Shown: positions 3,586 through 59,432 of the stretch, one piece after another | Layout of the letters: the number at the start of each line of letters is the position of its first letter | Numbering within the stretch: position 1 is the first letter of the stretch | Source of the DNA: an uncultured Gammaproteobacteria bacterium | Lineage (GTDB): Bacteria > Patescibacteriota > Patescibacteriia > UBA9934 > CAMTUG01 | Direction: 5' to 3' | Assembly: GCA_964588955.1 (NCBI GenBank) | Contig: CAZPQJ010000007.1 | Span: 3,128 to 67,127, forward strand | DNA length: 64,000 bases | Notes under the pieces: model-generated | Databases searched by the model: none | Seen by the model: the letters and a program-made list of their open reading frames with translations, nothing else | What the model was told of the DNA's origin: nothing | Made by a program: the position numbers and the translations under genes

Positions 3586-3701
3586 AAGGCATCGGTCAGC
3601 AAATAAATTATCTACATGTGCGATGATATCGTGAAAAAAAAATGTGTCAAGTACATCGCCGCAAAAAACAAAAACCGACTACGTTTTCGTAATCAGTTTC
3701 C

Positions 3702-3777
3702 TGGTCGGGCCGGCGGGACTTGAACCCACGGCCTCTACGTCCCGAACGTAGCGCTCTACCTACTGAGCTACGGCCCG
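3702..3777 (-). tRNA. tRNA-Pro (anticodon CGG)
   Basis: The reverse complement folds as a cloverleaf. The acceptor stem is CGGGCCG/CGGCCCG, the D-arm is GCTC-AGTAGGTA-GAGC, and the anticodon stem is CTACG/CGTAG around the loop TTCGGGA. G37 is present, the T-arm is GTGGG-TTCAAGT-CCCGC, and CCA is encoded. Confidence 0.8.
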
Positions 3778-3877
3778 ACATTGCAGCGCCTTCGTCGACG
3801 ATGCCCCAAGAAGATACCCAATCCCTTGAAAAAGATCAAGGTTTGGATTAGACTCATGGGCACAAGAATCGTTCGAA

Positions 3878-3992
3878 AATGGATGAGATTTCGTTGAACG
3901 GGATGCCAGACTCCGAAACGTATGAATAATACGTTGAGGGGTTGGCAGGGACCTGTGAAACGAAAGCTCGCCAGTTTTGAACGATTCTCTAA
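3878..3992. repeat. Copy 1 of a ~115-nt repeated structured element ('element B'), immediately upstream of tRNA-Pro(GGG)
   Basis: It shares three blocks with 20832..20950 and 35495..35612. The 5' block is gaaaatggatgagatttcgttgaacggg. A central hairpin reads acgtatgaataatacgt. The 3' block reads gaaacgaaagctcgccagttttgaacgattc. The ends pair with each other (gaaaatgg / ccagttttg). Confidence 0.55.
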
Positions 3993-4067
3993 CGGGCTAT
4001 GGCGCAGTGGTAGCGCGCTTGCATGGGGTGCAAGAGGTCGAGGGTTCAAGTCCCTCTAGCCCGACCA
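3993..4067 (+). tRNA. tRNA-Pro (anticodon GGG)
   Basis: The acceptor stem is CGGGCTA/TAGCCCG. The D-arm is GCGC-AGTGGTA-GCGC. The anticodon stem is CTTGC/GCAAG around the loop ATGGGGT. The T-arm is GAGGG-TTCAAGT-CCCTC, followed by ACCA. Confidence 0.8.
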
Positions 4068-4097
4068 AAAATTCTTACTTCGGTAGGAATTTTTTTG
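4068..4097 (+). terminator. Rho-independent terminator after the tRNA
   Basis: The stem aattcttac/gtaggaatt closes the loop ttcg and is followed by TTTTTTT. Confidence 0.7.
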
Positions 4098-15637: not shown

Positions 15638-15838
15638 CTCCGAAGCGGACGGGGTAGACGTTGCTCCGCAGAGCAGAACAGCCGACCAACGGTTCGAGCG
15701 ACGGACAGAAAACCGCACAAACGATTAAACAAACACAGGCCTTGTAGGTCTGTGTTGTTCTGAGCTCGAACCGTTGGGTTGTTTCTTTAGGCCTTCTGCT
15801 CAAGGACAACGTCTGCCCCGGACGCGAAGGTGAGCCAC
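15638..15838. repeat. ~200-bp MITE-like element with imperfect terminal inverted repeats ('element A', copy 1)
   Basis: The left TIR is ctccgaagcggacggggtagacgttg. The right TIR is caacgtctgccccggacgcgaaggtgag. An internal 14-bp perfect palindrome is present (ccaacggttcgagc ... gctcgaaccgttgg). A near-identical inverted copy lies at 33181..33420. A half copy lies at 20732..20797. Confidence 0.75.
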
Positions 15839-15875
15839 GGGGTAGTCAGCAGCTCGCCATGTTGATGGGTTCGCT

Positions 15876-16394: not shown

Positions 16395-17396
16395 TTAATC
16401 CCCTGTCGTTAAACGTACGCCTGCCTGCCACAATCCATCTTGACCATGTTCCCGCATCCAATACCAATATTCAACCCCCCAAAAATCCACCTCATCAAAT
16501 CCAGCCTGTTTGGCAAACGCCACATTAGCGGAAAGTTCCGTTGGCGTAAACTGGGAAGCGAGCTCTTCCGGTGTCTGTTCCTCAATTCCCTTGGTAAACC
16601 ACGGTTCCGCCTGCAGTTCCGAGACAATCACCTTATCCGTAAACGGGCGCACAGCCAAGGTTTTTGCGGCATAGTACTCGGGGCCCAGGGGATAGACCGA
16701 ATATCCGACTACATCATTCCAGGTAACACGATACATACTCACGCCCAATACATTGGCCGGGATAGCCGTGTCTAGCCAAAATTCATTCTCGCCGCTCGTG
16801 GTGAGTTGGATGGGCTTGTTGGAAAGGCGTTTCACAAGCGCGACTTCCTGATCAAACAATTCCGCGTCGGGAGTTGGACATTCACCAAAACTATAAAACG
16901 GTTCATTCTCTACTTGATAACGTTCAACAACTTCTTGATCGTCATAACGCCGGACGATATTTTCTAGCTCATCCAACAAACTTTGACGAGCTTCCGCGCG
17001 TGACATTTTTTCCGCCCAATCAGGAATATAACACTCGGGCCACCGGGGCACTTTGCGACCAATAGCCAATGTTACACGCACGTCACGCTTCGCGGCTTCG
17101 GCAAGCATCCAATCCAGATCATCAAAATGATAAACATGTTCTTCCGGCTCAAGCTCACTCCAATACACAGGCAAACGGACACGTTTAATCTGCAGCTCAT
17201 CCAGCATTGCCGTATACACCTCGCGCCAGCGCAATCCTAAATTTTCAGCGTAGACCGTGGAAAATGTTGCTCCGTAACTCACGGTGAGCGCATGCTGTTT
17301 TGTCCGCGCTCCCAGCACGGCCAAGACAGCGACAACCACCGCGAACAGAAAAAAGACTGCGCCCTCGGCCAACTTTTTGTGATGAATCCTCCTCAT
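16395..17396 (-). CDS. Glycoside hydrolase family 5-like (TIM-barrel, beta-mannanase/endoglucanase-type)
   Basis: An N-terminal TM is present. The NEP acid/base motif reads YQVENEPF. A later conserved Glu region and YWSELEP are also present. Confidence 0.6.
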   Translation of the reverse strand: MRRIHHKKLAEGAVFFLFAVVVAVLAVLGARTKQHALTVSYGATFSTVYAENLGLRWREVYTAMLDELQIKRVRLPVYWSELEPEEHVYHFDDLDWMLAEAAKRDVRVTLAIGRKVPRWPECYIPDWAEKMSRAEARQSLLDELENIVRRYDDQEVVERYQVENEPFYSFGECPTPDAELFDQEVALVKRLSNKPIQLTTSGENEFWLDTAIPANVLGVSMYRVTWNDVVGYSVYPLGPEYYAAKTLAVRPFTDKVIVSELQAEPWFTKGIEEQTPEELASQFTPTELSANVAFAKQAGFDEVDFWGVEYWYWMREHGQDGLWQAGVRLTTGD

Positions 17397-20453: not shown

Positions 20454-20731
20454 AGTGTACGCATTTTAGCACACTTGACGATGCACTAAAACATCTTCCC
20501 ACTTTCTTTGTTCCGTCAAAGAAAGAGGAGGTTATGAAACCGTCCGGCCTATCCTGCGTTCGCCGGGCCAGTAGCGGCAGAACATCCCTTGCTGCGGAAC
20601 TCGCTTCTCGGCTAACAAGATAAATAAGCCTCGTACGCTCAAACAATCCTCGCTTCTGAAGGAAAGGATGTTCTGCCGCACTGGCTCCGTCGTACTCGGA
20701 ACGGCCGGGGGCGAACGGGCAAGGGGCGAAC

Positions 20732-20797
20732 GGGACACGGACGGGGCTAATGTTGCTCCGCAGAGCAGAACAGCCGACCAACGGTTCGAGCGACGAG
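20732..20797. repeat. Truncated (left-half) copy of element A
   Basis: gggacacggacggggctaatgttgctccgcagagcagaacagccgaccaacggttcgagcgacg matches the element A left arm. It is preceded by three ggcgaacggg tandem repeats. Confidence 0.65.
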
Positions 20798-20831
20798 GGT
20801 TAGTTTCAAAAGCGCTTATCGTGGACGCACG

Positions 20832-20950
20832 GATTTCAGAAAATGGATGAGATACGAAGTCTTGGAGGCGAAGCAGGCTGCCGAGGCGTATGCACTGATA
20901 CGGTGAGGCAGCTGCGAGCCGAAAGACGAGTAGCTCGCCATTTTCTAAAT
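20832..20950. repeat. Copy 2 of element B (~115-nt structured repeat)
   Basis: It begins gaaaatggatgagat. Its central hairpin reads ggcgtatgcactgatacggtg. Its 3' block reads cgaaagacgagtagctcgccattttctaaatcc. The ends are complementary (gaaaatgg / ccattttc). Confidence 0.55.
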
Positions 20951-21004
20951 CCGCGGAAATATAAAAACCCCTCAGGTTACCCTAAGGAGTTTTTATATTT
21001 CCGA

Positions 21005-21253
21005 TTACTCGCGAGGAGCTTTCGGGCGAGCCACGTCGAGGTGGATCGGACGGCCGTCGATTTCGCTTCCGTCGAGTTCAGCGATAGCCTTTTGGGCTTC
21101 CTCTGCAGTCGAGAAGGTTACGAATCCGAAGCCTTTCTTCATAGGAACGTACACGTCGGTCACGGTTCCAACGCCAGCAAAGTGGTCGCGGACCATGTCC
21201 TCGGTAGCTCCGAAGGAAAGGTTGCCGATGAACAGGCGATTGCCATTGTCCAT
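21005..21253 (-). CDS. RRM-type RNA-binding protein
   Basis: 82-aa ORF. RNP-2 reads LFIGNL and RNP-1 reads KGFGFVTF. Confidence 0.85.
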   Translation of the reverse strand: MDNGNRLFIGNLSFGATEDMVRDHFAGVGTVTDVYVPMKKGFGFVTFSTAEEAQKAIAELDGSEIDGRPIHLDVARPKAPRE

Positions 21254-33180: not shown

Positions 33181-33420
33181 TCGGACTCCCCTCCCACGTC
33201 CGAGCCAGACGTTGTCCTTGAGCAGAAGGCCTAAAGGAACAACCCAACGGTTCGAGCTCAGAACAGCAGAGATCTACACGTTCAGTTATTATTTGTTGTG
33301 TTCGTTTGACTTTCCGTCCGTCGCTCGAACCGTTGGTCGGCTGTTCTGCTCTTCGGAGCAACGTCTGTCCCGTCCGTGTCCGGGTCGCCCGAGCAATAGG
33401 CGACCCGAAGCGGACGGGGC
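33181..33420. repeat. Element A, copy 2 (inverted relative to copy 1)
   Basis: Its reverse complement matches 15638..15838 over the TIRs and both internal arms. It also contains gggtcgcccgagcaataggcgaccc, a hairpin. Confidence 0.75.
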
Positions 33421-34775: not shown

Positions 34776-35464
34776 AGCGCCATGGTTTTTCGCAACTCTT
34801 CTTTAATCTCCTCTGAATCCGGTGCCAACACCGCCGCTTGGCGATAAGCCGAAAGCGCTTGATCAATATCGCCTTGGGCCACGTATAGTCGCCCCAATTT
34901 CACGTAGAACGAAGAACTTTCTGGATTATCAATCAATGCTTGCTTCAAAAGGGGGATCAACTGATCCGCGCGATCATCCATGCGATAGCCTGTGTAGTAA
35001 CGATACAGCTTGTTGTAAGCAATTTCTGAAGGATCCTGTTCAATAGCTTTTTTATAATAATCTTCTGCTGCCATCGGGTCGCCCATATCGATCACAATGT
35101 CGCCCATATTATTCCAGGCGGTTTCGTTACCAGGATCCCCTGACGTTACTACAGTGTAATCAGCAAAGGCCAGCTGCAACTTGCCCAAACGTTGGTAGGC
35201 GTTGGCGCGCAAAAAGTACAAATCAAGAGCGTAAGCTCCTGCCGCTTCTTTGTCCGTAATCTGGGTGGTCAAATCCGCCACGGTTTGTTCAAACTCCGCT
35301 CGCTTATCGTCTGGCAAATTGACTTCGATTTCACTCAAGCGCTCCACCGGAGGCGGCGTTGGCACCGGCTCAGACGGCTTTAAGACAAAGAGATATGCTA
35401 CCGCCCCAGCAGCGAGAATCAACGACACGAACACGATTAACAGAGAAGGTTTGGATTGAGACAT
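34772..35464 (-). CDS. Tetratricopeptide-repeat protein with an N-terminal TM anchor
   Basis: TPR-like helices carry W/Y/A/P signatures (AYQRLGKLQLAFADY, AWNNMGDI, YYKKAIE). The start was chosen at MSQSK. The track N-terminus overlaps repeat element B. Confidence 0.65.
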   Translation of the reverse strand: MSQSKPSLLIVFVSLILAAGAVAYLFVLKPSEPVPTPPPVERLSEIEVNLPDDKRAEFEQTVADLTTQITDKEAAGAYALDLYFLRANAYQRLGKLQLAFADYTVVTSGDPGNETAWNNMGDIVIDMGDPMAAEDYYKKAIEQDPSEIAYNKLYRYYTGYRMDDRADQLIPLLKQALIDNPESSSFYVKLGRLYVAQGDIDQALSAYRQAAVLAPDSEEIKEELRKTMAL

Positions 35465-35494
35465 AGCAATAGTCTTTTTTATCGAGAATCTTTT

Positions 35495-35612
35495 TAAAAT
35501 TGATGGATTTTCGTTGAACGGGCTGTTGAGCTCGGGAGACGTATGGATATATACGTCGAGCGAGTCAACGGGCGCCCGTGAGACGAAAAGACGCAATTTT
35601 AAAGAGATTCTA
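35495..35612. repeat. Copy 3 of element B
   Basis: It begins aaaattgatggattttcgttgaacggg. Its central hairpin reads acgtatggatatatacgt. Its 3' block reads gagacgaaaagacgcaattttaaagagattc. Confidence 0.55.
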
Positions 35613-49449: not shown

Positions 49450-51042
49450 CTACTTCCAGTAGGCGTTGATGTAGGCGCCGTCGTTGGCGCCCGTCTTGGA
49501 GCCGTCGCCGTCGTCATCGGTCGAAACCGGGACGGCGAAGAGCGGAGCCTCGTCGTCGCGGTAGAGGTTGCCCACCACCGCGAACTCGTAGACGCCGTCG
49601 CCATCCGTGTCGCCGATGTTGGCGGCCCCCCATTGGACCTCGGCCCCGTCGAAGTACTCGACCTGGAGCACTTCGAACCCCGTGGGGAACTCCATCGGCT
49701 CGGAGACGATCTCGGTGGTCAGCACCCCGAAGTCGGCAGTGGCGATCACGGTCCACTCGAGGGTGTCCCAGCTCCAGGACCAGATCTGCCCCCCGTAGAA
49801 GCCCTCAGGGAGCTCCCAGGTGACGATCGAGAGGCCGTCGTCGATCTCCGTGCCGGTGTCGGCGGTATCGGCGTCGACAGCCGTGTCGGAGTCCTCGGTC
49901 CCGACGCCCGTGCCCGCGGTGTCCGCCGCGGAGTCGATGCCGGTCTCGACGGACCCGGTGGCCGTGTCGACCGTGCCGGTGTCGGTGGCCGTGTCGGAGT
50001 CGACCGCGGTGTCGGCCTCGGCGGTGTCGCTGTCCGCGACCGCGCCGGAGTCCGAGTCGACGAGCACGATACCGGAATCGCTCCCGGTGTCCGTGTCGCT
50101 GTCGACGCCGGTGTCGATCGCGCCGGTGTCGGTGTCCTCGGGCAGACAGTCGTCGCCCTCGTCCACCTGGCCGTCGCAGTCGTTGTCGATCTTGTCGCAC
50201 TCCTCGACGGCGCTCGGGTTGATGGCCTCCGCGTTGTCGTCGCAGTCGATCGCGCCGCTGACGGTGGTGAAACCGTCGCCGTCACAGTCGTTGTCGACGC
50301 ACGGGTCTTCCTCCGCGGAATCCGCCGCGGTGTCGGTGTCCCCGGTGCCGCCGGAGTCGACGGTGCCGGAGTCTTCGGGCTCGGCGCCCGTGTCGACGAC
50401 CTCGCAGCCCTCGTCGACCAGCCCGTCGCAGTCGTCGTCCCGCTCGTTGGAGCAGGTCTCGACCGCACCGGGGTTGACCGACTTGTAGTCGTCGTCACAG
50501 TCGCCCGGGAGGCTCGCGTCGGCGCACTCGGCGCCTTCACAGAACCCGTCGCCGTCGTTGTCGTATTCGCCGACCACGGTGCCGCTGTCAGCGTCCGTGT
50601 CGGAATCGGTGTCGGTGTCCGCGTCCGAATCCGTGTCGGCATCCGTGTCCGAGTCCGCATCGGTGTCGCTGTCGGAATCCGAATCGGTGTCCGAGTCCGT
50701 GTCAGCGTCCGTGTCGGAATCGGTGTCGGTGTCCGCGTCGGAGTCGGTGTCCGTGTCCGCCTCGCCGGTATCGACACTGCCGCTGCCGGCCGTGTCGACG
50801 ATCTCGCCGGTGTCGGTGTCCGTGCCCGAGTCCGTGTTGGTGTCCACGATCCCCGAGTCTTCCCCGGAGTCCGTCTCGACCGTTCCCGTCTCGGTGTCCG
50901 CCGTGTCGACCGGGGCGCTGTCGCCCGTGTCGATCTCGCCCGTCTCCCCCTGCTCGACGCTGCCGGTGTCGGCGACATCGTAGTCGAGGTCGATCGGGTT
51001 GCTGTCGCAGCCGACGAGGATCAAGCTGATGATCAGGAACAT
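49450..51042 (-). CDS. Lipoprotein with acidic (DTD/DSD)n tract and MopE-like Asp/Cys-rich 'putative metal-binding' repeats
   Basis: The lipobox is LILVGC. It is followed by tandem DxDxDGDGxxxxxDCDDxxxxxxPGAxExCxxxDxDCDG-type units and a W-rich C-domain. GC is ~67%. Confidence 0.7.
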   Translation of the reverse strand: MFLIISLILVGCDSNPIDLDYDVADTGSVEQGETGEIDTGDSAPVDTADTETGTVETDSGEDSGIVDTNTDSGTDTDTGEIVDTAGSGSVDTGEADTDTDSDADTDTDSDTDADTDSDTDSDSDSDTDADSDTDADTDSDADTDTDSDTDADSGTVVGEYDNDGDGFCEGAECADASLPGDCDDDYKSVNPGAVETCSNERDDDCDGLVDEGCEVVDTGAEPEDSGTVDSGGTGDTDTAADSAEEDPCVDNDCDGDGFTTVSGAIDCDDNAEAINPSAVEECDKIDNDCDGQVDEGDDCLPEDTDTGAIDTGVDSDTDTGSDSGIVLVDSDSGAVADSDTAEADTAVDSDTATDTGTVDTATGSVETGIDSAADTAGTGVGTEDSDTAVDADTADTGTEIDDGLSIVTWELPEGFYGGQIWSWSWDTLEWTVIATADFGVLTTEIVSEPMEFPTGFEVLQVEYFDGAEVQWGAANIGDTDGDGVYEFAVVGNLYRDDEAPLFAVPVSTDDDGDGSKTGANDGAYINAYWK

Positions 51043-51339
51043 GTGGGTCTCCTTGCAGGCACTCTGGCCTGCCATGGGTTCACGCTTTCAGGAACGTCTC
51101 AAACGCACAAACGTGGATTGCGCTCGAGAAAAGGGAGGAGATTCGGCTCCTTTGTCCTAGTTCCGCAACGATTTACCATCATCACGAAACAGGAAAATAT
51201 AGCATAAAAATGGGGTTTTGTCAATGGTACATGGCCAATATTGGCCAAAAAATGCCATTAAACGCGAAGACGCCGCCCGAGGAGTGAACCTGGGCGGACG
51301 TCGTTGGAGGTCAGGGCCCGGTCGGGTTGGTAGAAGCGG

Positions 51340-52857
51340 CTAGGGGGCGGTGATCATGCGGGAGTAGTCGCCGTCGCCGTCGGGGTCGACCAGGGTGACG
51401 GAGTTGGGCACCCCGTCCGTGCTGGAGTGGATGCTGGCCGAGGCGTCGTCGGCGAGCGAGGTGCCGTCCGGGAAGTAGGCGTCGACGGTGGCGCTGTCGC
51501 TGCCGCCGAGGCACAGGTCCATGGTGAAGGCGAAGTACCAGGAGGTGCCGCCGAGGAAGCTACTCGAGACCGTCACCCCGACCACGCCTTCCGGGGACCA
51601 CTCGCCGCTGAGCGCCGAGCCACCCCCGGTGACTTCGGCCACGAACGAGTCGGGCTGGCCGTTGTTGCTGTTCAACTCGACCAGGAACTCGCACGGATCC
51701 TCGTCGACGCTACCGTCACAGTCGTTGTCGAGGCCGTCGCTGCCCTTGTCGGCGGCGCCGGGGTGGATGGTGTCGTCGGTGTCGTCGCAGTCGTCGTCGT
51801 TGTCGACGTAGTCGGAGGGAGCCGTGCAACTCGTGAAGGTGTCACTCGGGTCGCCGTAGCCGTCCTCGTCGCCGTCGTAGTAGCGGGTGACCTCGTCGAC
51901 CGCGCGGTCGTGGATGTCGCCGTCGCAGTCGTTGTCCACGCCGTCGGTGGCGCAGGTCTCCGGGGCGCCGGTGTAGGTGGCGGCGTCGTAGTCGTTGCAG
52001 TCGAGGGTGTTGTCGACGAAGCCACCGGGCGCCTCGCAGCCTTCGGTGGAGGAGCTGGCGTTGCCCTGGCCGTCGGCGTCGACGTCGGCGTAGAAGGGAC
52101 TCATCACCCCCTCGTCGACGCTCTCGTCACAGTTGTCGTCGACGCCGTTGCAGGACTCGGGGGCACCGGGGTAGATGGTGCCGTCGTCGTCGTTGCAGTC
52201 GTCGGCGTTGGCCGACCACCCGGGGAAGGCCTCGCAGGCGAGGATCGTCGACGCGTTGCTGCCGTAGGTGTCGCCGTCGGCGTCGATGTAGATGGTGGTG
52301 TAGAGACCCTCCTCGTCCGTGTCGACCCAGGTGTCCCAGGTGTCGCAGTCGTTGGGCTGACCGTCACAGACCTCCGGCGCGCCGGGGTAGATCCAGGCGT
52401 TGTCGTCGTCGCAGTCCCAATGGAACTCGCTCGGGTCGCCGTCACCGTCCTCATCGTAGTAGTCGTCGTCGGTGAGCTGCTCGTAGGCGTCGGAGAGCTC
52501 CCCGCCGTTGGCTGCCACGAACTCCTCGAGGGTGTCGATGTCGCAGGCCATGGCCACGCCGTTGCTGTCGTTGAAGCCGTCGCCGTCGCTGTCCATGGCC
52601 CAGATGTTGTCGACGTGGTAGGTGTCGGCGTCGTCGGCCGCGCCGTCGCAGTCGTTGTCGACTCCTCCGTCGCACAGCTCGACCGCCCCGGGGTGGATGT
52701 TGGGGTCGGCGTCATCGCAGTCCCCGCCGAGCTCGGTGTAGCTGTCTCCGTCGTCGTCGACGTAGTAGCCCTTCTCGGTCGAACCCGACTTGTCAGTGGG
52801 ATTGCGACCGGTACCGGCACAGGCCGCGAGGAGGAGGATGAGGGAAAGGTAGCGCAT
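51340..52857 (-). CDS. Lipoprotein with MopE-like Asp/Cys-rich repeats
   Basis: The lipobox is LLLAACAG. There are 5 or more DCDD..PGA.E.C.G.DNDCDG repeats. GC is high. Confidence 0.7.
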   Translation of the reverse strand: MRYLSLILLLAACAGTGRNPTDKSGSTEKGYYVDDDGDSYTELGGDCDDADPNIHPGAVELCDGGVDNDCDGAADDADTYHVDNIWAMDSDGDGFNDSNGVAMACDIDTLEEFVAANGGELSDAYEQLTDDDYYDEDGDGDPSEFHWDCDDDNAWIYPGAPEVCDGQPNDCDTWDTWVDTDEEGLYTTIYIDADGDTYGSNASTILACEAFPGWSANADDCNDDDGTIYPGAPESCNGVDDNCDESVDEGVMSPFYADVDADGQGNASSSTEGCEAPGGFVDNTLDCNDYDAATYTGAPETCATDGVDNDCDGDIHDRAVDEVTRYYDGDEDGYGDPSDTFTSCTAPSDYVDNDDDCDDTDDTIHPGAADKGSDGLDNDCDGSVDEDPCEFLVELNSNNGQPDSFVAEVTGGGSALSGEWSPEGVVGVTVSSSFLGGTSWYFAFTMDLCLGGSDSATVDAYFPDGTSLADDASASIHSSTDGVPNSVTLVDPDGDGDYSRMITAP

Positions 52858-52933
52858 CTCGATTGACTCCGTTGGGGTGATCTCCCTAAGAAAAGCACTT
52901 GGAAACCCAGTAACTTCCGCATGGGGAGATAGG

Positions 52934-52962
52934 GTTATACCCAGGAACTGTCAAATTGTCAA
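52934..52962 (-). promoter_or_regulatory. Candidate promoter (TTGACA-N17-TATAAC) for the 51340..52857 gene
   Basis: On the minus strand, ttgaca is at 52962..52957 and tataac at 52939..52934. Confidence 0.4.
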
Positions 52963-53018
52963 TATAATGAGGATCCCCTCAGGAAGAGCGCTTCCCGAGG
53001 GGATCTTGAGAAACCCGG

Positions 53019-54629
53019 TCAAAACTTGCCGTCACAGTCGTCGTCGTAGGCGTCGTCGGGCGCGTCGTAGGCGCCGGGGTGGGTGGAGTCGTTGCTGTCG
53101 TCGCAGTCGCCGTTGTGGTCGACGTAGCCTTCCGGACAGATTCCGTCCTTGGCGGCAATCCCGCCCACGGAGTCGCCGTAGCCGTCGTTGTCGGCGTCCG
53201 GGAAGCAGGCCACTTCGCAGACGTTGTCTTCGTCGATGACGCCGTCACCGTTGTTGTCGACGCCGTCGCACTCCTCGACGTCACTGCAGTCCGCGATCCC
53301 GTCGCTGTCGGCGTCGAAACCTTCGTCAACCTCATCATCGCAGTCGTCGTCGAGGCCGTTGCAGATCTCTTCCGCGTCGGGGTTGATCGCCGCGTCGGCA
53401 TCGTCACAGTCGCCGCTCTCCGCGATGTAGCCAGAGGGCGCGCTGCAGTTCTCGATGCTGTCGCGACTGTCACCGAAGCCGTCGTTGTCGCCATCGTAGT
53501 ACCAGGTGGTGGCTCCGGTGGCGTCGGACTCGTCGGTGGTGCCGTCGCAGTCGTTGTCCGCGCTGTCGCAGACCTCGCTCGCGCCGGGGTTGATCGTCGA
53601 ATCGCCGTCGTCGCAGTCGCCCTTGGCTTCGACGTAGCCGCTCGGGGCGGTGCAGGTCGTCTCGCTCTTGCGGGCGAGGCCGTACCCGTCGCTGTCCGCG
53701 TCGAGGTAGAACGTGGAAGTGCCCACGGCGCTGTCGGGATCGATCTCGCCATCGCAGTCGTCGTCGAGGCCGTTGCAGGTCTCGATCGCGTCCGGGTTCA
53801 CTTCCGCGCTCGTGTCGTCGCAGTCGCCCGCGTCCACCACGTAGCCCGAGGGCTCGTAGCAACTGACGACCGCGTCGCCCGGGTTGCCGAAGCTGTCACC
53901 GTCGTTGTCCGCGAACCAGGTCGGGGCACCGAAGGCGTCGCCCTCGTCGACGCTGCCATCGCAGTCGTTGTCGAGGCCGTCGCAGTACTCGGTAGCGCCC
54001 AGGTGCACGCCCACGTCGGCGTCGTTGCAGTCGTCGGCGTTCTCGACGTACTCCTCGGGCACGGAACAGGCCAGGGTGGAGGAACTCGCGTTCCCCTGCC
54101 CGTCGCCGTCCGCGTCTTCGTAGAACGTCAGCTCGACGCCTTCGTCGACGCCCCCGTCGCAGTCGTTGTCCGCACTGTCGCAGACTTCGCTCGCGCTCGG
54201 GTTGACGTCGCTGCGCGCGTCGTCGCAGTCGTTGGCGTTCACGACGTAGCTCGGGATCTCCACGCAGGTGGTGATCTCGATGCTGGCGTCGCCGTAGCCG
54301 TCGCCGTCGCCGTCGAAGTAGCGCGCGTCGCCATCGTCGCTCTCGCCATCGCAGTTGTCGTCCACGCCGTTGCCGCAGATCTCGGCCACGCCAGGGTTGA
54401 CGCTCGCGTTGTTGTCGTCGCAGTCGGCCTCAGCGCCGTAGCCGTCGCCGTCGTTGTCCGTGTCGACGACCCCACCGCTGTCGCTGTCGACGTTGGTGTC
54501 GCTGTCGTCGCCGCCGGTCTCGACGTTGCCGGTCTCTTCGACCGAATCGGCCGAGTCGACATCGTCCGAATCCCCGTTGTACGGGGGCAGGAACATGTCC
54601 ATGCAGGCACTCAAAAGGAGCAAGATCAC
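53019..54629 (-). CDS. Lipoprotein with MopE-like Asp/Cys-rich repeats
   Basis: The lipobox is LLLSAC. There are ~9 repeats of the form DADGDGxG....C.....YV....DCDD.....NPGA.E.C...DNDCDG. Confidence 0.7.
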   Translation of the reverse strand: MILLLLSACMDMFLPPYNGDSDDVDSADSVEETGNVETGGDDSDTNVDSDSGGVVDTDNDGDGYGAEADCDDNNASVNPGVAEICGNGVDDNCDGESDDGDARYFDGDGDGYGDASIEITTCVEIPSYVVNANDCDDARSDVNPSASEVCDSADNDCDGGVDEGVELTFYEDADGDGQGNASSSTLACSVPEEYVENADDCNDADVGVHLGATEYCDGLDNDCDGSVDEGDAFGAPTWFADNDGDSFGNPGDAVVSCYEPSGYVVDAGDCDDTSAEVNPDAIETCNGLDDDCDGEIDPDSAVGTSTFYLDADSDGYGLARKSETTCTAPSGYVEAKGDCDDGDSTINPGASEVCDSADNDCDGTTDESDATGATTWYYDGDNDGFGDSRDSIENCSAPSGYIAESGDCDDADAAINPDAEEICNGLDDDCDDEVDEGFDADSDGIADCSDVEECDGVDNNGDGVIDEDNVCEVACFPDADNDGYGDSVGGIAAKDGICPEGYVDHNGDCDDSNDSTHPGAYDAPDDAYDDDCDGKF

Positions 54630-54868
54630 GGGACCTCCAGGGTAGGATAATCTTCAAAACAGAGCAGGCCCCTATTTTGAAGATCGGTTGGGGAAAAGTG
54701 CTAATCGTTGCTTTTGGCCTGACTTATGCCCTTGTCAGTCCAAAAACACCTCTCAAATTAGCCTTGTTTTCCTTGTCCGCGAACTGTAGTTCTTATCACG
54801 ATAATCAAGAAACGTCAAGCAATTGCGCCTCCCCAGGGAGTACCCGGGGAGGCGCAAGCAGTCAGGGA

Positions 54869-56722
54869 CTAGCCGTCGATGATGCCGTCGCAGTCGTCGT
54901 CGAAGCCGTTGCAGGCGGCCTCAGGGGTGACACCATCGTCCCCCAGGCAGTCTTCGGCGCCCGGGTGAACCCCGGAGTCCTCGTCGCTGCAGTCGCCGTC
55001 GCAGACGGTGTAGCCATCGCCGTCCGCGTCAGTGGTGTCCGTATCCGGGTTGATACCGGCATCGTTATCGTCGCAGTCGTCGGCGTTGTCAACGTAACCT
55101 TCGGGCGCCACACAGGCGTCGTAGGTGACGCTCGCGTCGCCGAAGCCGTCGCCATCGGCGTCGGCGTAGAACGTGCTGGTGTCGATCGCGGAGTCTTCGT
55201 CCACGTCGCCGTCGCAGTCGTTGTCGACGCCGTCGCAGAGTTCGTCGGCGTCGGGGTTGATCAACGGATCCATGTCGTCGCACTCGGAGCACGCTGCGAA
55301 CCCATCGCCATCCGCGTCTTCGACCCCCACCGACCCATCGCAGTTGTAGTCGAGGCCAGCGTTACAGGCCTCGGGCGCGCCGGGGTAGTAGGCGGCATCG
55401 CTGTCGTCGCAGTCGTCGACGTTGTCGACGTAGCCCTCCGGCGCCACGCAAGCGTCGTAGGTGACGCTCGCGTCGCCGTAGCCGTCGCCGTCCGCATCGG
55501 CGTACCAGGTGCTCGCGTCGATCGCATCGTCCTCGTCCACGTCGCCATCGCAGTCGTTGTCGACCTCGTCGCAGAGCTCGTCGGCGTCGGGGTTGATGTC
55601 GACGTTGGAGTCGTCGCAGTCAGTGGTGGTTCGCGCGTAGCCAACGACGCTACCGCAGGAAATGATCGATCCAGAGGGATCGCTCGATCCGTAGCCATCG
55701 TCGTCAGCATCAAGGTAGAGCGGCACCGCGTCCAGCGCGGAGTACTCATCCGTCTCCCCGTCGCAGTCGTCGTCCTTGCCGTTGCAGTACTCGTCGGCGT
55801 CGGGGTAGATGGCTGCGTCGCTGTCGTTGCAGTCAACGTCGCTCGTGTAGCCGTCGCCGTCGAGATCGACAGGCGCGGTGTCGACGATCACGCCACTGTC
55901 ACCGGTGTCGGCCGTGTCGATCGTACCGGTGTCACCCGTGTCCGTGGTGTCGACGATCCCTCCGGTGTCGGTGTCGATCGCGGTGTCCACGGTGTCACCC
56001 GTGCCAGTGTCGCCGGTGTCGGCCGTGTCGACCGTACCGGTGTCGGTGTCCTCAAGCGGACAGATCTCGCCTTCGTCCACGTCGCCGTCGCAGTCGTTGT
56101 CCGCGCTGTCGCAGACTTCGGTGGCGCCGGGGTTGATGGCGTAGCTCGTGTCGTCACAGTCGTCCCCGTTGAAGACATACCCAATGGGGATGTCGCACTG
56201 CACCTGGATGGTCGAGGCGTCGCCGTAGCCGTCGTGATCCGCATCCTCGTACAAGGTGAACATGTCCTCGGCGGCGTTGTCGACATAGCCGTCGCAGTTG
56301 TCGTCGAGGTTGTTGCACGCCTCGAGCGCGCCGGGGTGAACGGCCGCGTCGGAGTCGTCGCAATCGTCGGACTCCAGCACCCAGGCTGCGCCATCGGAAG
56401 GCTGGCTGCAGCTTTCGTAGGCATCCTCGGTTTTGCCGTAGCCGTCGCCGTCGAGATCGAGGTACCAGGTACGTGTTCCCTCTTCGTCGACCTCGCCATC
56501 GCAGTCGTTGTCGACATCATCGCAGACTTCGGTGGCGTCCGGGTGGACGGCCGCATCGTTGTCGTCGCAGTCCTCGTCGGAACCGTAGCCGTCGCCGTCC
56601 GCGTCAAGCGCGGGCAGGCTGACGGAATCGTCAATCGCCGTCTCGTCGTTTCCGCCCTTCCCCGAGTCTTGCGGGAGGGGGCAGCCAGCGAGAAGAAACA
56701 GGAACAGGATGAAGGAACGCAT
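54869..56722 (-). CDS. Lipoprotein with MopE-like Asp/Cys-rich repeats
   Basis: The lipobox is LLAGC and the start is at MRSFILF. The C-terminus reads DCLGDDGVTPEAACNGFDDDCDG and is shared with the next gene. Confidence 0.7.
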   Translation of the reverse strand: MRSFILFLFLLAGCPLPQDSGKGGNDETAIDDSVSLPALDADGDGYGSDEDCDDNDAAVHPDATEVCDDVDNDCDGEVDEEGTRTWYLDLDGDGYGKTEDAYESCSQPSDGAAWVLESDDCDDSDAAVHPGALEACNNLDDNCDGYVDNAAEDMFTLYEDADHDGYGDASTIQVQCDIPIGYVFNGDDCDDTSYAINPGATEVCDSADNDCDGDVDEGEICPLEDTDTGTVDTADTGDTGTGDTVDTAIDTDTGGIVDTTDTGDTGTIDTADTGDSGVIVDTAPVDLDGDGYTSDVDCNDSDAAIYPDADEYCNGKDDDCDGETDEYSALDAVPLYLDADDDGYGSSDPSGSIISCGSVVGYARTTTDCDDSNVDINPDADELCDEVDNDCDGDVDEDDAIDASTWYADADGDGYGDASVTYDACVAPEGYVDNVDDCDDSDAAYYPGAPEACNAGLDYNCDGSVGVEDADGDGFAACSECDDMDPLINPDADELCDGVDNDCDGDVDEDSAIDTSTFYADADGDGFGDASVTYDACVAPEGYVDNADDCDDNDAGINPDTDTTDADGDGYTVCDGDCSDEDSGVHPGAEDCLGDDGVTPEAACNGFDDDCDGIIDG

Positions 56723-56870
56723 CGTTTTCTCCGGTCTTGGTGGGTGGGTCATACGGCTCTTTTGGTTTAGAGCCGACAAAGAAACCTACACGTTAAAGAC
56801 CAAAAAGTCAAGGGTTAAGACGTCATTACGCCTCCCCAGGGAGTACCCGGGGAGGCGTAAAAGTCAGGGA

Positions 56871-57473
56871 CTAGCCGTCCTTCTTGCCGTCACAATCGTC
56901 GTCGATGCCGTTGCAGCCTGCCTGCGGGGTGACCCCGTCATCGGCCAGGCAATCTTCTGCGCCCGGGTACATGCCGTTGTCCGCGTCGTTACAATCGCCG
57001 GCGCAAGTCGTGTAGCCATCGCCGTCGCTGTCGAAGCCTTCATCAACGCCGCCGTCGCAGTCGTCGTCGAGGCCGTCGCAGATCTCCATGGCGTTCGGGT
57101 TGATGACCGAGGAGGTGTCGTCACAGTCGGTGTTGTCGACCACGTAGCCCGCGACTTCCTCGCAGGAGGTGACCATCGCGCCCGCGTCCCCGAAGCCGTC
57201 GGCGTCGAGGTCGAGGTAGTAGAGGGTGGCGTCCGTGGCCGCGTTGTCCACTTGGCCGTCGCAGTTGTCGTCGAAGCCGTTGCAGACTTCTTCTGCCCCG
57301 GGGTAGACGCTCGCGTTGTCATCGTCACAGTCGTCGCCGAACACGAACCCGTCGTGGTCGCTGTCGATCTGATCGACGCCCGCTGTGGAATCGACCACTT
57401 CCGACGCCGTGTCGACATCGTTGAGTTGGATCGACGCAGAGGAACAGGCCAGCAAGAAGATAATCAAGGACAT
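56871..57473 (-). CDS. Small lipoprotein with MopE-like repeats (paralog of 54869..56722)
   Basis: The lipobox is LLACSS. The C-terminus reads DCLADDGVTPQAGCNGIDDDCDG. A ~50-nt 3' region including a terminator hairpin is shared with 54826..54877. Confidence 0.7.
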   Translation of the reverse strand: MSLIIFLLACSSASIQLNDVDTASEVVDSTAGVDQIDSDHDGFVFGDDCDDDNASVYPGAEEVCNGFDDNCDGQVDNAATDATLYYLDLDADGFGDAGAMVTSCEEVAGYVVDNTDCDDTSSVINPNAMEICDGLDDDCDGGVDEGFDSDGDGYTTCAGDCNDADNGMYPGAEDCLADDGVTPQAGCNGIDDDCDGKKDG

Positions 57474-57719
57474 GGATGATCTCCGGTAGAGATATGGATG
57501 CCATTTGCAGGTCTCTTGTAATCAAGAGCCAACAAAGAAACCTACACGCCGGAAGCCGAAAGGTCAAGGGTGGTAATACGTGGATTTTCAAAAAACGCCA
57601 GCTGCAAGGCGCGGGGAAGCCGGCGAAGGAGCCGTATCTAAACATACGGCGACAAGACGGCGGGGCCCCGCAACACAGCAGATGGCGGAATTTTGGAAAT
57701 CCATAATCCAAAATATGAA

Positions 57720-57757
57720 GCGCCCCTGAAGAAGAGAGAGCTTCCTTCAGGGGCGCA
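57720..57757 (-). terminator. Terminator hairpin (CCCCTGAAG palindrome) after the 57824 gene
   Basis: gcgcccctgaag-aagagagagcttc-cttcaggggcgc is followed on the sense strand by a T-rich tract. Confidence 0.55.
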
Positions 57758-57823
57758 AAGAGTTTCTTCGTCGCGCCCCCTTGGGAAGATTCCTCTTCTT
57801 CAGGGGCGCCTCGTTGTGCCGGG

Positions 57824-59158
57824 CTAGTAGCGCGTGGACCAGATCCAGTCACCGATGATGTAGGCGATCAACTCGCCCCCGTCTTCGACACCCGACTCCT
57901 TCGAGTAGGTGTAGTAGACCTCGGAGACGCCGGACCCCGAGGAGTCCGTGCAGACCCAGGAGATTTCTCCCCGGATCTCCACGTCGTCGGTGCCCTCGCC
58001 GGTCGACTCGACCGAGAAGTTGACGCCGTCGCCGTTGACGCAACCCGCGTTGATGCGGGCGGCCTCACCGGACTCCATCGTGTACACCTCGGAGATGGTG
58101 TCGGTGCTCGACGCGGTCGTGCCCAGGGACGAATCCCAGGACCAGCCAACGCTCGTCGCGACCTCCGCCTCGGTGTACATGGCCGCGCACTCCTCGGGCG
58201 AGACCCAGGTGAACGTACAGGTGTACGTCTCCGAGCCCGAGCCCGTGTCGCCGGTGTCGGTCGTGTCCTCGATGCAGGCGGCGGGGTTGCCCTCGCCGTC
58301 GTCACCGCACACCTTCCCGGCGGACGCGCAGTCGTAGGACTCGACCGCGGTGTGCTCCTCGTTGCAGTAGTACGTCACATCCCCGACGCACTTGGGGTAC
58401 TCGGAGCAGTCGATGCCCGACCCAGTGTCGCCGGTGTCCTCGCAGGCGTCGCCCTCGTCCACGCTGCCGTCGCAGTCGTTGTCGATCCCGTCGCACTTCT
58501 CGGTGGCGCCGGGGTTGACCTCGGGGTTGGCGTCGTCGCAGTCGACATCGTCGTAGCCGTCGTCGTCCGCATCGTCGTCGGCACAGGCGTCACCTTCGTC
58601 GGAGTGGCCATCACAGTCGTCGTCGAAGCCGTTGCAGGTCTCGGTGGCGCTGGGGTTGATGGCCCAGTTCCCGTCGTCGCAATCGCCTTCGTCCTCGGTG
58701 TAGCCGTCGCCGTCCGCGTCGTCGTCGGTGTCGCAGTCCTCGTCGATCGAGCCGTCGCAGTCGTTGTCCACGCCGTTGCCGCAGATCTCGGACGCGCCGG
58801 GGTAGACGCTGGCGTCGCTGTCATTGCAGTCGACACCTTCGCCGTAGCCGTCGTTGTCGACGTCCGTGTCGGTCTCGCAGACTTCATCGACGTCGCCGTC
58901 GCAGTCGTCGTCGAGGCCGTTGCACTTCTCGGTCGCGCCGGGGTAGATGGCGGAGGAGGTGTCGTCGCAGTCAACGTCGTCGCCGTAGCCGTCGCCGTCG
59001 GCATCGACCGGACCGGTGTCCGTGTCGGTGTCGCCGGTCTCGGCCGTCTCGCCGGTCTCCGCGGTCTCGTGGGAGTCCGCGGTGTCGACCGAGCCGGTGT
59101 CTCCGACGTCGGTACGGATGTTGTTGGCAAGCCCGCAGGCCATCAGGGTGATCAACAT
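57824..59158 (-). CDS. Lipoprotein with MopE-like repeats and a Cys-rich C-terminal domain
   Basis: The lipobox is LMACG and the start was chosen at MLITLMACG. There are 6 repeats, followed by a C-domain rich in C/W/Y. Confidence 0.65.
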   Translation of the reverse strand: MLITLMACGLANNIRTDVGDTGSVDTADSHETAETGETAETGDTDTDTGPVDADGDGYGDDVDCDDTSSAIYPGATEKCNGLDDDCDGDVDEVCETDTDVDNDGYGEGVDCNDSDASVYPGASEICGNGVDNDCDGSIDEDCDTDDDADGDGYTEDEGDCDDGNWAINPSATETCNGFDDDCDGHSDEGDACADDDADDDGYDDVDCDDANPEVNPGATEKCDGIDNDCDGSVDEGDACEDTGDTGSGIDCSEYPKCVGDVTYYCNEEHTAVESYDCASAGKVCGDDGEGNPAACIEDTTDTGDTGSGSETYTCTFTWVSPEECAAMYTEAEVATSVGWSWDSSLGTTASSTDTISEVYTMESGEAARINAGCVNGDGVNFSVESTGEGTDDVEIRGEISWVCTDSSGSGVSEVYYTYSKESGVEDGGELIAYIIGDWIWSTRY

Positions 59159-59194
59159 GGGGTGATACTCCGCGGCTTCAAGCCGCGCTCGCAC

Positions 59195-59432
59195 TGTTAC
59201 GGGAACCGGAAACTCACACAGGATTGTGCGTCCGTCGTCGTTGTCCAGGAATTGAACCTTTCGGACGGACGGAAGTTGGGGAACAGGATTGGGAGATAAA
59301 GATGGAGAAAGAGGGAGAAAAATGGATATTGGGAAAAAATTCTTTTCCCTTTCTCCTATCTCCTATTTTCTCCTACTTTTTCTCTATCCACCCAATTCCA
59401 CAACTTCCATCCGCCTATACAGATTCAATCTC
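59195..59432. repeat. Upstream module copy 1 (~240 bp): conserved 5' leader hairpin plus GGAGAAA-rich palindrome, directly upstream of the 57824..59158 gene
   Basis: It runs ggaaccggaaactcacacaggattgtgcg-tccgtcgtcgttgtcc...gaacctttcggacggacggaagttgggg, then ggagataaagatggagaaagagggagaaaaatggatattggg...ttcttttccctttctcctatctcc, then ccacaacttccatccgcc. It matches 61069..61292. Confidence 0.7.

Follow-up and report, generated by a model that had tools for sequence, protein, structure and literature searches.

A dispersed family of intergenic hairpin repeats with a strand-specific fold in Patescibacteria

A stretch of 64,000 nt of contig CAZPQJ010000007.1 (assembly GCA_964588955.1, placed by GTDB in the Patescibacteriota), referred to below as the window, carries four copies of a non-coding hairpin element of about 127 nt. 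The data fit a mobile hairpin repeat in which selection maintains the single-strand fold of one strand. With moderate confidence we read the family as non-coding, non-autonomous hairpin repeats of ~125–130 nt that have spread through the spacers and tRNA leaders of Patescibacteria, RNA of the sense strand being the probable active form. Genomes of these bacteria, also known as the candidate phyla radiation (CPR), are tiny and tightly packed, and the family takes a measurable share of their scarce intergenic DNA: four copies are found in the 64-kb window and at least nine in one metagenome-assembled genome (MAG). To our knowledge, few non-coding RNAs have been described in CPR bacteria.

Three copies lie on the + strand at 3865–3988 (c1), 20830–20953 (c2) and 35485–35611 (c3), near the places where the initial annotation had put three copies of a candidate small RNA, and their alignment has a mean column identity of 72%. 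Reading and aligning the sites also bore out the sequence blocks said to be shared (AAAAT-K-GATGRR, the CGTATG-loop-ATACG tip and RACGAR..CGC-N-ATTTT). A pattern derived from these blocks matches just c1–c3 in the window, with no match expected from 100 shuffles. Each copy forms one rod of ~124–127 nt with ~55 bp. Specifically, the minimum free energy (MFE) is −63.8 kcal/mol for c1 (a 124-nt rod; z −9.8; 96.8 bits), −66.3 kcal/mol for c2, the most diverged of the three (z −8.2; 75.7 bits), and −68.4 kcal/mol for c3 (z −12.0; 99 bits). The reverse strands fold 12–20 kcal/mol worse, and the model E-values of the three copies range from 1e-13 to 1e-18. A fourth copy, c4, at 57579–57706 (+) was picked up by covariance models, first by a three-copy and later by a 38-member model (46.5 bits, E 1.4e-7). 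It folds at −64.3 kcal/mol on the + strand vs −55.6 kcal/mol on the − strand. This member of a diverged subfamily retains the rod, the CCGUAU/AUACGG tip, CAGAU and AAUUUU, is without UNGAUG, and is similar to the copies at loci L051 and L055.

The architecture is not the terminal pairing plus internal hairpin that had been proposed, as folding gives a single continuous rod for each copy. Pairing of the two ends does exist, but had been drawn too short: the closing helix lies ~11 bp further out. In c1 the base helix joins 3865–3882 with 3971–3988, and the arms of the closing helix are AGAATCGTTCGAAAATGG and CCAGTTTTGAACGATTCT (also written AGAAUCGUUCGAAAAUGG and CCAGUUUUGAACGAUUCU). The AAAAU-G-G-A-UG motif occupies 3876–3885, and the tip helix is formed by CGUAU (3919–3923) and AUACG (3929–3933) around the loop GAAUA (3924–3928), with tandem G.A pairs on its flanks. 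The c3 arms, AGAAUCUUUUUAAAAUUG and CAAUUUUAAAGAGAUUCU, differ from those of c1 by compensatory changes. Loop variation, which had been seen as a mark of structured RNA, is confined to the apical loop; the internal loops are conserved and purine-rich. A supposed degenerate end-to-start junction at 15850–15875 comes down to a 10-nt and a 7-nt resemblance. The full-model scan gives nothing there at E ≤ 1, and we treat the resemblance as chance.

Further copies in other genomes, for which the initial annotation had recommended a search, are many (~40). Members were gathered with a pattern requiring AAAAUKGAUGR, CGUAU and AUACGNNGAG; it gave 25 loci in 185,579 species genomes, 23 loci in metagenome contigs and no match in the viral contigs scanned. 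About 38 members were confirmed with covariance models. By record title the hosts are mostly Patescibacteria, including Ca. Uhrbacteria (nine loci in the MAG nzgw337), Nomurabacteria, Paceibacteria, Minisyncoccia, ‘Saccharibacteria’ and UBA6201. Two short member-bearing contigs carry the label Gammaproteobacteria, and four gut Eubacteriales/Clostridia MAGs have a shorter version of ~108 nt. Within one genome, copies that are ~90% identical exist. The window belongs to a relative of Ca. Uhrbacteria; its proteins are 62–63% identical to named Uhrbacteria proteins and 76–80% identical to other matches. Searches of Rfam 15 found only two tRNAs in the window at the gathering score, and only rRNA, tRNA and RNase P in 20 member loci, with no match to the element; permissive scans of c1 and the copy at L018 stayed at chance level (9–11 bits). 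In the literature, a keyword search gave no description of such a CPR repeat and a literal sequence search gave primers only. The family is uncatalogued so far.

Covariation was measured on a model-based alignment of 36 members, with 500 column shuffles and slid partners as controls. Paired cells amount to 94% as observed vs 73% after shuffling and ~41% with slid partners. The covariation score is 0.555 vs 0.162, and none of the 500 shuffles reaches any observed measure. Compensatory changes, on which the initial proposal of a structured RNA hinged, are abundant: they affect 12 of 52 pairs among c1–c3, and both-sided changes occur at 21 of 31 pairs among the 36 members. The rod begins with an outer helix of 9–12 bp, its least conserved part, which varies freely and stays paired. 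Inward from it follow a conserved AAAAU/AUUUU helix, a covarying N-N′ pair (G-C, U-A, U.G or A-U) and then, in this order, G-C, an A that bulges out, U.G (in 34 of 36 members) and a second G-C. Beyond this base the rod consists of helices separated by two or three internal loops rich in purines; in c1, tandem G.A pairs can be made out clearly at UGAA/UGAA and beside the tip. At the far end CGUA(U)/(A)UACG forms the tip helix, which closes a free loop of 3–6 nt.

The fold is specific to one strand. In 37 of 38 members it is the sense strand that reaches the lower MFE (mean difference −14 kcal/mol), and its G.U pairs are about three times as frequent. Such an asymmetry speaks for selection on the single-stranded form of the sense strand, since the mutation bias between leading and lagging strands would push the opposite way. 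Covariation above controls and a strand-specific fold are the general signs of a structured non-coding RNA, and the family has both. The orientation of the copies tracks base composition better than gene direction. Specifically, the sense strand lies on the C-rich strand at 31 of 42 loci, on the G-rich strand at six, and five are flat; in the window, where GC skew is negative over 1–48 kb, each of the four copies lies on the + strand.

It remains to be asked whether the three hairpins are alike by chance or belong to a larger repeat. The initial annotation had itself raised the possibility that they are the terminal part of element A, a hairpin repeat of ~190 nt (15646–15824, +; 33197–33390, −; half copy at 20724–20795, +; copies 87–93% identical), and c2 does lie next to the half copy, as had been described, 33 nt after it. 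However, c1, c3, c4 and ~40 members elsewhere have no element A alongside, the block pattern is expected zero times by chance, and the model E-values are 1e-13 to 1e-18. Dozens of copies without element A rule out this origin, the two repeats are separate and unrelated, and we leave chance or element A virtually no probability. Element A has no Rfam match either; its copy 1 folds as RNA at −103.8 kcal/mol on the + strand (z −10) vs −91.4 kcal/mol on the other.

RNA is likely to be the active form of the sense strand, because G.U and G.A pairs are conserved on one strand, because four members form promoter-element-tRNA units from which RNase P would release the rod, and because the well-folding strand lies on the leading-strand template, unlike in replication-coupled single-stranded DNA (ssDNA) transposons. 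Seven members adjoin tRNA genes (Pro, Gly, Thr, Arg, Val). At c1, L003a, L006 and L041 the sense strand is directly upstream of the tRNA and, where upstream sequence exists, follows a promoter-like site. The initial annotation had c1 abutting a tRNA, which is correct: c1 ends 2–4 nt before tRNA-Pro(GGG) (3993–4067, +), and a terminator hairpin with a T-run can be read after the tRNA at ~4067–4097. A sigma-70-like promoter, TTGAAA-17-TAGACT, at 3826–3854 (+) matches the consensus at 9 of 12 positions, with 0.2 such sites expected in shuffles. From this promoter transcription would start 2–4 nt before the base of c1 and yield a transcript of c1 and tRNA-Pro(GGG), and an RNase P cut at the 5′ end of the tRNA would define the 3′ end of the c1 RNA. 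At L006 a consensus match, TTGACG-18-TATAAA, is followed by the element and then by the tRNA.

These units raise the question whether the copies are small RNA genes. Of what had been proposed initially, a structured-RNA family stands by its structure, compensatory changes, further copies and strand specificity; its status as a discrete small-RNA gene is not supported. Trans-acting genes would encode a ~127-nt rod whose role is to bind or sequester a conserved CPR protein, similar to 6S, Y or CsrB-type RNAs, and would have become multicopy by gene duplication. We consider this somewhat unlikely. Very strong covariation and a strand-specific fold agree with it, as do the conserved bases outside the search pattern (U.G in 34 of 36 members; CGC-N′-AUUUU), the retention of orthologous copies with compensatory changes, and the spread over several CPR classes and Clostridia; the promoter-element-tRNA units at c1, L006, L041 and L003a would give a discrete RNA after RNase P. 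On the other hand, the conserved unit is without promoter or terminator, and copies of both orientations lie tight against stop codons or overlap them. Presence varies at ~75–80% protein identity, three relatives have no copy in 20-kb stretches, one strain is without half of c2, and no partner gene co-occurs among the neighbours.

Comparison of related genomes gives a picture of mobility. Among the nzgw337 copies homology stops exactly at the hairpin base, and thus no promoter or terminator travels with the element. We compared the syntenic block HU - LPG synthase - RRM - DUF6938 - ... - RNR between relatives. The c2 site (RRM/DUF6938) is empty in L050 (77% identity; 125-nt spacer) and in L053/L054 (69%; 45-nt spacer). 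In L050 a copy sits between HU and LPG synthase, a site that is empty in the window, and L051/L052 have one between two genes that lie 17 nt apart in the window. Three relatives have no copy within 20-kb stretches. Presence or absence thus differs between genomes with ~75–80% identical proteins, and from the filled and empty orthologous sites it follows that the element also behaves as a small mobile repeat. Copies can be lost in part as well: comparison of L049 (Logan SRR17347193, 2290–2467) with window 20780–21020 shows a clean 78-nt deletion of the c2 5′ arm plus 8 nt upstream, with an identical RRM protein and one base different in the flanking DNA. This loss is either a hairpin-associated deletion or an assembly artefact.

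Some copies are old. L018 and L022 share the order DUF2207-element-htpX with flanking proteins that are 79% and 48% identical, and their copies show compensatory differences in the outer and inner helices. The same site is filled also in L055 and empty in L058 (57-nt spacer). L056 and L057 lack DUF2207 and hence any spacer equivalent to this one, and the model detects no copy at either of the two loci. In both L006 and L041 a copy occupies the leader of tRNA-Arg(GCG). The htpX genes of L018 (4169–4209) and L022 (2168–2238) are preceded by TTGACA-7nt-TATAAT, with the ATG 6 nt later, which suggests a leaderless htpX mRNA and unusual promoter spacing in these CPR genomes.

Segmental duplication may also have contributed. 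c1 and c3 have ~25 nt of similar 5′ flank (AAGGUUUGGAUU..AGAC..CAU; as DNA AAGGTTTGGATT..AGAC..CAT) at 3840–3862 and 35443–35466. At c3 this flank comprises the first codons of a TPR-protein gene, and at c1 an orphan pseudo-start that runs into tRNA-Pro. The common flank and its identity at c3 therefore indicate that at least one window copy arose by segmental duplication of a gene start together with the element. In addition, several Uhrbacteria copies (c1, c2, L009, L017 and L023) have weakly similar 8–10 nt just 5′ of the hairpin (ATGGGCAC, GTGGACGCA, GTAGCGCAC, CTGGCGTA, ATGGCGC). This hints that the repeat unit of one subfamily may include a short unpaired 5′ tail.

Mobility and a bare hairpin bring to mind REPIN/REP-like or IS200/IS605-type ssDNA elements, in which a Y1 (HUH) transposase or RAYT from another place in the genome would act on the DNA hairpin of the sense strand, and its fold would be selected for transposition. 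A hairpin without duplicated target site is as expected for HUH-type transposition; ~90% identical copies are present within one genome, orientation is linked to GC skew and hence to replication, and REPIN hairpins, too, are reportedly maintained by compensatory change. A close relative even has a Y1_Tnp gene (L050, 16728–17297). However, this gene is flanked by other palindromes (GGCGGGGC-N-GCCCCGCC) and not by the 127-nt element, and no Y1 gene lies near any of the ~40 members. There is no conserved 5′ tetranucleotide or target. Moreover, the well-folding strand is on the C-rich strand, i.e. the leading-strand template, whereas elements of the IS608 type follow the opposite rule and use the template of the lagging strand. 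Unlike REPINs, which are lineage-specific, the family has a core that is conserved across CPR classes. Altogether we consider an ssDNA element of this kind improbable. The Y1_Tnp of L050 is IS200-like and is inserted between RNR and DMRL synthase (region 16728–17330); the window does not have it. In and after the 3′ part of the gene there are three REP-like palindromes (TATAGGCGGGGC-N-GCCCCGCC), and the locus resembles a RAYT/REP-like system without relation to the 127-nt element.

The positions of the copies relative to genes could speak for a cis-acting mRNA element, such as a 3′ stabiliser, terminator, attenuator or intercistronic processing site. At 19 of 42 loci the sense strand ends beside a convergent gene, with its 3′ end at −13 to +5 nt relative to the stop codon; the spacers that house elements are very short and some copies overlap stop codons. 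L005 is flanked by genes that look by eye like dnaK and dnaJ, L016 by two genes of the same direction, and c3 is probably part of the 5′ leader of the TPR gene. Such a mode of action is that of ERIC and Correia elements (PMC3184786). In those 19 loci, however, the messenger contains the antisense hairpin, which folds 14 kcal/mol worse on average and is not the strand with the conserved G.U and G.A pairs. Orientation is mixed, the neighbours are unrelated housekeeping genes (e.g. ThrRS, GluRS, Tex, PfkB, htpX and the RRM protein), tRNA leaders are used as well, and no U-tract follows the outer helix. A cis-acting role as the basis of the family is thus highly improbable in our view.

Several points weigh against the reading that we prefer, i.e. 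mobile hairpin repeats with an RNA as active form. The loci are non-independent samples, nine being from one MAG and several forming orthologue sets. That AAAAUKGAUGR, CGUAU and AUACGNNGAG do not vary is in part a circular result, as these made up the collection pattern; members found only by the models (L003a, L010b, c4, L050, L051, L055a/b, L059) mostly retain CGUA and differ elsewhere, including at pattern positions. Note that the 3′ half (A.AUCGC-N′-AUUUU and the outer arm) is outside the search pattern, yet conserved. Among 42 members there is no target-site duplication, consistent TA flank, conserved flank or 5′ tetranucleotide; the flanking TA at L050 and L051 seems to stem from stop codons by coincidence. 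No related transposase lies near the members, and no binding partner was seen among the neighbour proteins scanned. An all-against-all BLAST of 248 open reading frames (ORFs) from 33 loci gave no recurrent partner protein and no transposase or insertion sequence (IS) beside the element. Boxes of the −10 type are not enriched upstream of the sense strand (27 vs 21 of 42 for the antisense strand). Relative to both neighbours, ~23 copies are antisense, ~10 sense and 6 mixed, and in many loci the likeliest RNA would be the weaker antisense hairpin, e.g. at c3, where a promoter-like site on the − strand (35641–35612) would transcribe the antisense strand as the 5′ leader of the TPR gene.

How could such a repeat work? 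The sense strand would be transcribed, at c1 from the promoter at 3826–3854 together with tRNA-Pro and with release by RNase P, and elsewhere from neighbouring or divergent promoters. The conserved base and the G.A loops could then serve as a docking or processing platform for a conserved host factor, e.g. an RNase III-type dsRNA nuclease or a G.A-binding protein, through which the element would influence how adjacent transcripts are processed or how stable they are. New copies would arise by a trans-acting mechanism and sometimes by segmental duplication. Copies may survive best when their strongly folding strand is off the lagging-strand template, because a very stable hairpin on that template invites deletion; the half-deleted c2 variant shows that losses occur. 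A bolder version can be offered only tentatively: the family could be an undescribed class of structured RNA, widespread in CPR bacteria and with a cellular role of its own, whose ~127-nt rod with its conserved base module and tandem-G.A loops docks or titrates a conserved RNA-binding protein or nuclease, is often made from a tRNA-linked precursor that RNase P cuts, and propagates like a mobile gene, as a bacterial counterpart of RNA genes of the type of short interspersed nuclear elements (SINEs).

Some further observations concern the surroundings of the window copies. c2 sits between the half copy of element A and the bidirectional terminator (20957–21004) of an RRM-protein gene. This gene (21005–21253, −; 82 aa, a single RRM) is convergent with c2, shares the bidirectional terminator and is still present in relatives without c2, and the adjacency is therefore probably coincidental. 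c3 had been placed between two gene ends, but in fact it lies between a gene start and the terminator of an upstream − strand gene; its 5′ end is 20 nt from the divergent ATG (35464, −) of the TPR-protein gene. Directly 3′ of c4, two GC-rich hairpins at 57715–57813 (GCGCCCCTGAAG...CTTCAGGGGCGC) have weak scores with the hairpin models and are probably terminators of the upstream − strand gene. A very large, GC-rich (61–65%) repetitive coding region with periods of ~141–207 nt extends over ~49450–59200 (−). Its dozens of GTCGCAGTCGTTGTCGAC-type units code for Asp/Cys-rich repeats and its frames look fragmented in the ORF list; an adjoining 200-aa protein (56871–57473) matches Cu-binding_MopE. 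At L059, from a relative of the window organism, in the position where the window has c1 and tRNA-Pro, a 167-nt hairpin of the same superfamily (3634–3800; 24 bits; GGAUGA; tip flanked by GA...GAG) fills the space from a TATAAT box, ~5 nt before the hairpin base, to the ATG of a methyltransferase orthologue; its sense strand folds 17.6 kcal/mol better.

The family represents either an RNA that is abundant yet unrecognised or a mobile hairpin that has been successful. Its covariance model can be used for annotation and its copies as a marker of recent strain rearrangement. It also offers a clean case for the joint study of single-strand fold selection, insertion dynamics and replication-strand bias.

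Several known RNAs and repeats were considered as possible identities. Hammerhead and hairpin ribozymes, SRP, 6S, Y-RNA, 5S and group II domain-5, which were prompted by GAUGAG, CGAAA and GAGCCGUAU, were rejected by reading: there is no three-way junction, the element is multi-copy and GAGCC is not conserved across members. For the hammerhead, core positions C3/U4 are absent and the predicted fold has no unpaired GAAA. An intrinsic terminator does not fit, as AUUUU is internal, pairs with AAAAU and is followed by the outer helix, and a terminator scan calls none at the elements. Integron attC sites were rejected by the lack of core sites, by the base AAAAUNG / CN′AUUUU and by the location of copies 15–17 kb apart among housekeeping genes. 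A box C/D or kink-turn motif was suggested by UNGAUGAG, but Watson-Crick covariation of N/N′ means a continuous helix, the 3′ strand has C-N′-A and not CUGA, and no 3-nt bulge precedes the G.A pairs. The tigRNA units of TIGR-Tas systems are CPR hairpins whose palindromic stems vary and whose stem base carries short conserved motifs (PMC12045711; bioRxiv 10.64898/2026.09.09.750476). The 127-nt element likewise has CNA (CCA, CGA, CAA or CUA) at its 3′ base. However, tigRNAs have two unpaired 8–12-nt spacers between box C and box D, form tandem arrays and have a tas gene adjacent. Our rod is almost fully paired and dispersed as single units, with no Nop-domain protein among the neighbours scanned, and a TIGR stem-loop was rejected.

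REPIN/REP-RAYT systems resemble the family in being bare hairpin repeats of ~100 nt without duplicated target site that form families within genomes and retain their structure. The 127-nt family differs in that it carries no GTAG/CGTC tag, is not built of two REPs and has no RAYT linked to it in the loci scanned, and its strand bias is opposite to the lagging-strand-template prediction. None of the 42 members carries the tag, the sole Y1_Tnp seen, that of L050, is flanked by unrelated GGCGGGGC palindromes, and we do not count the family among REPINs. With classical bacterial miniature inverted-repeat transposable elements (ERIC, Correia, RUP, Nezha) the family shares small size, lack of coding capacity, a stable hairpin fold and sites that are filled or empty between relatives. 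IS-matching terminal inverted repeats and target-site duplications were not found here, and the outermost helix is the least conserved.

The closest known elements are ERIC, Correia and especially bcr1, which are intergenic repeats of ~100–155 bp that are co-transcribed (PMC3184786). ERIC-type repeats have terminal inverted repeats with TA flanks or target duplications; ERIC is co-transcribed with its neighbours, and orientation-dependent effects have been reported (PMC3184786). ERIC/IRU (~127 bp) and our family share size, an imperfect palindrome that gives a long hairpin, intergenic location, often just after stop codons, and variable copy number. They differ in that the 127-nt family has no terminal repeats, target duplications or consistent TA flanks, no sequence similarity to ERIC and hosts of another phylum. 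In addition, its outer helix is the most variable and covarying part, and its core is conserved across class-level lineages. bcr1 is transcribed, its structure is kept by compensatory changes at the RNA level, and it is dispersed with a distribution that is not conserved between strains (PMC3184786). The 127-nt family resembles bcr1 (~155 bp, Bacillus cereus group) as a dispersed intergenic repeat with patchy distribution and a fold maintained by compensatory changes; bcr1 has 5-bp direct repeats and is limited to one species group, whereas the 127-nt family has none and occurs in many CPR lineages and some Clostridia. On this comparison, the family would be a structured intergenic hairpin repeat of a kind known elsewhere.

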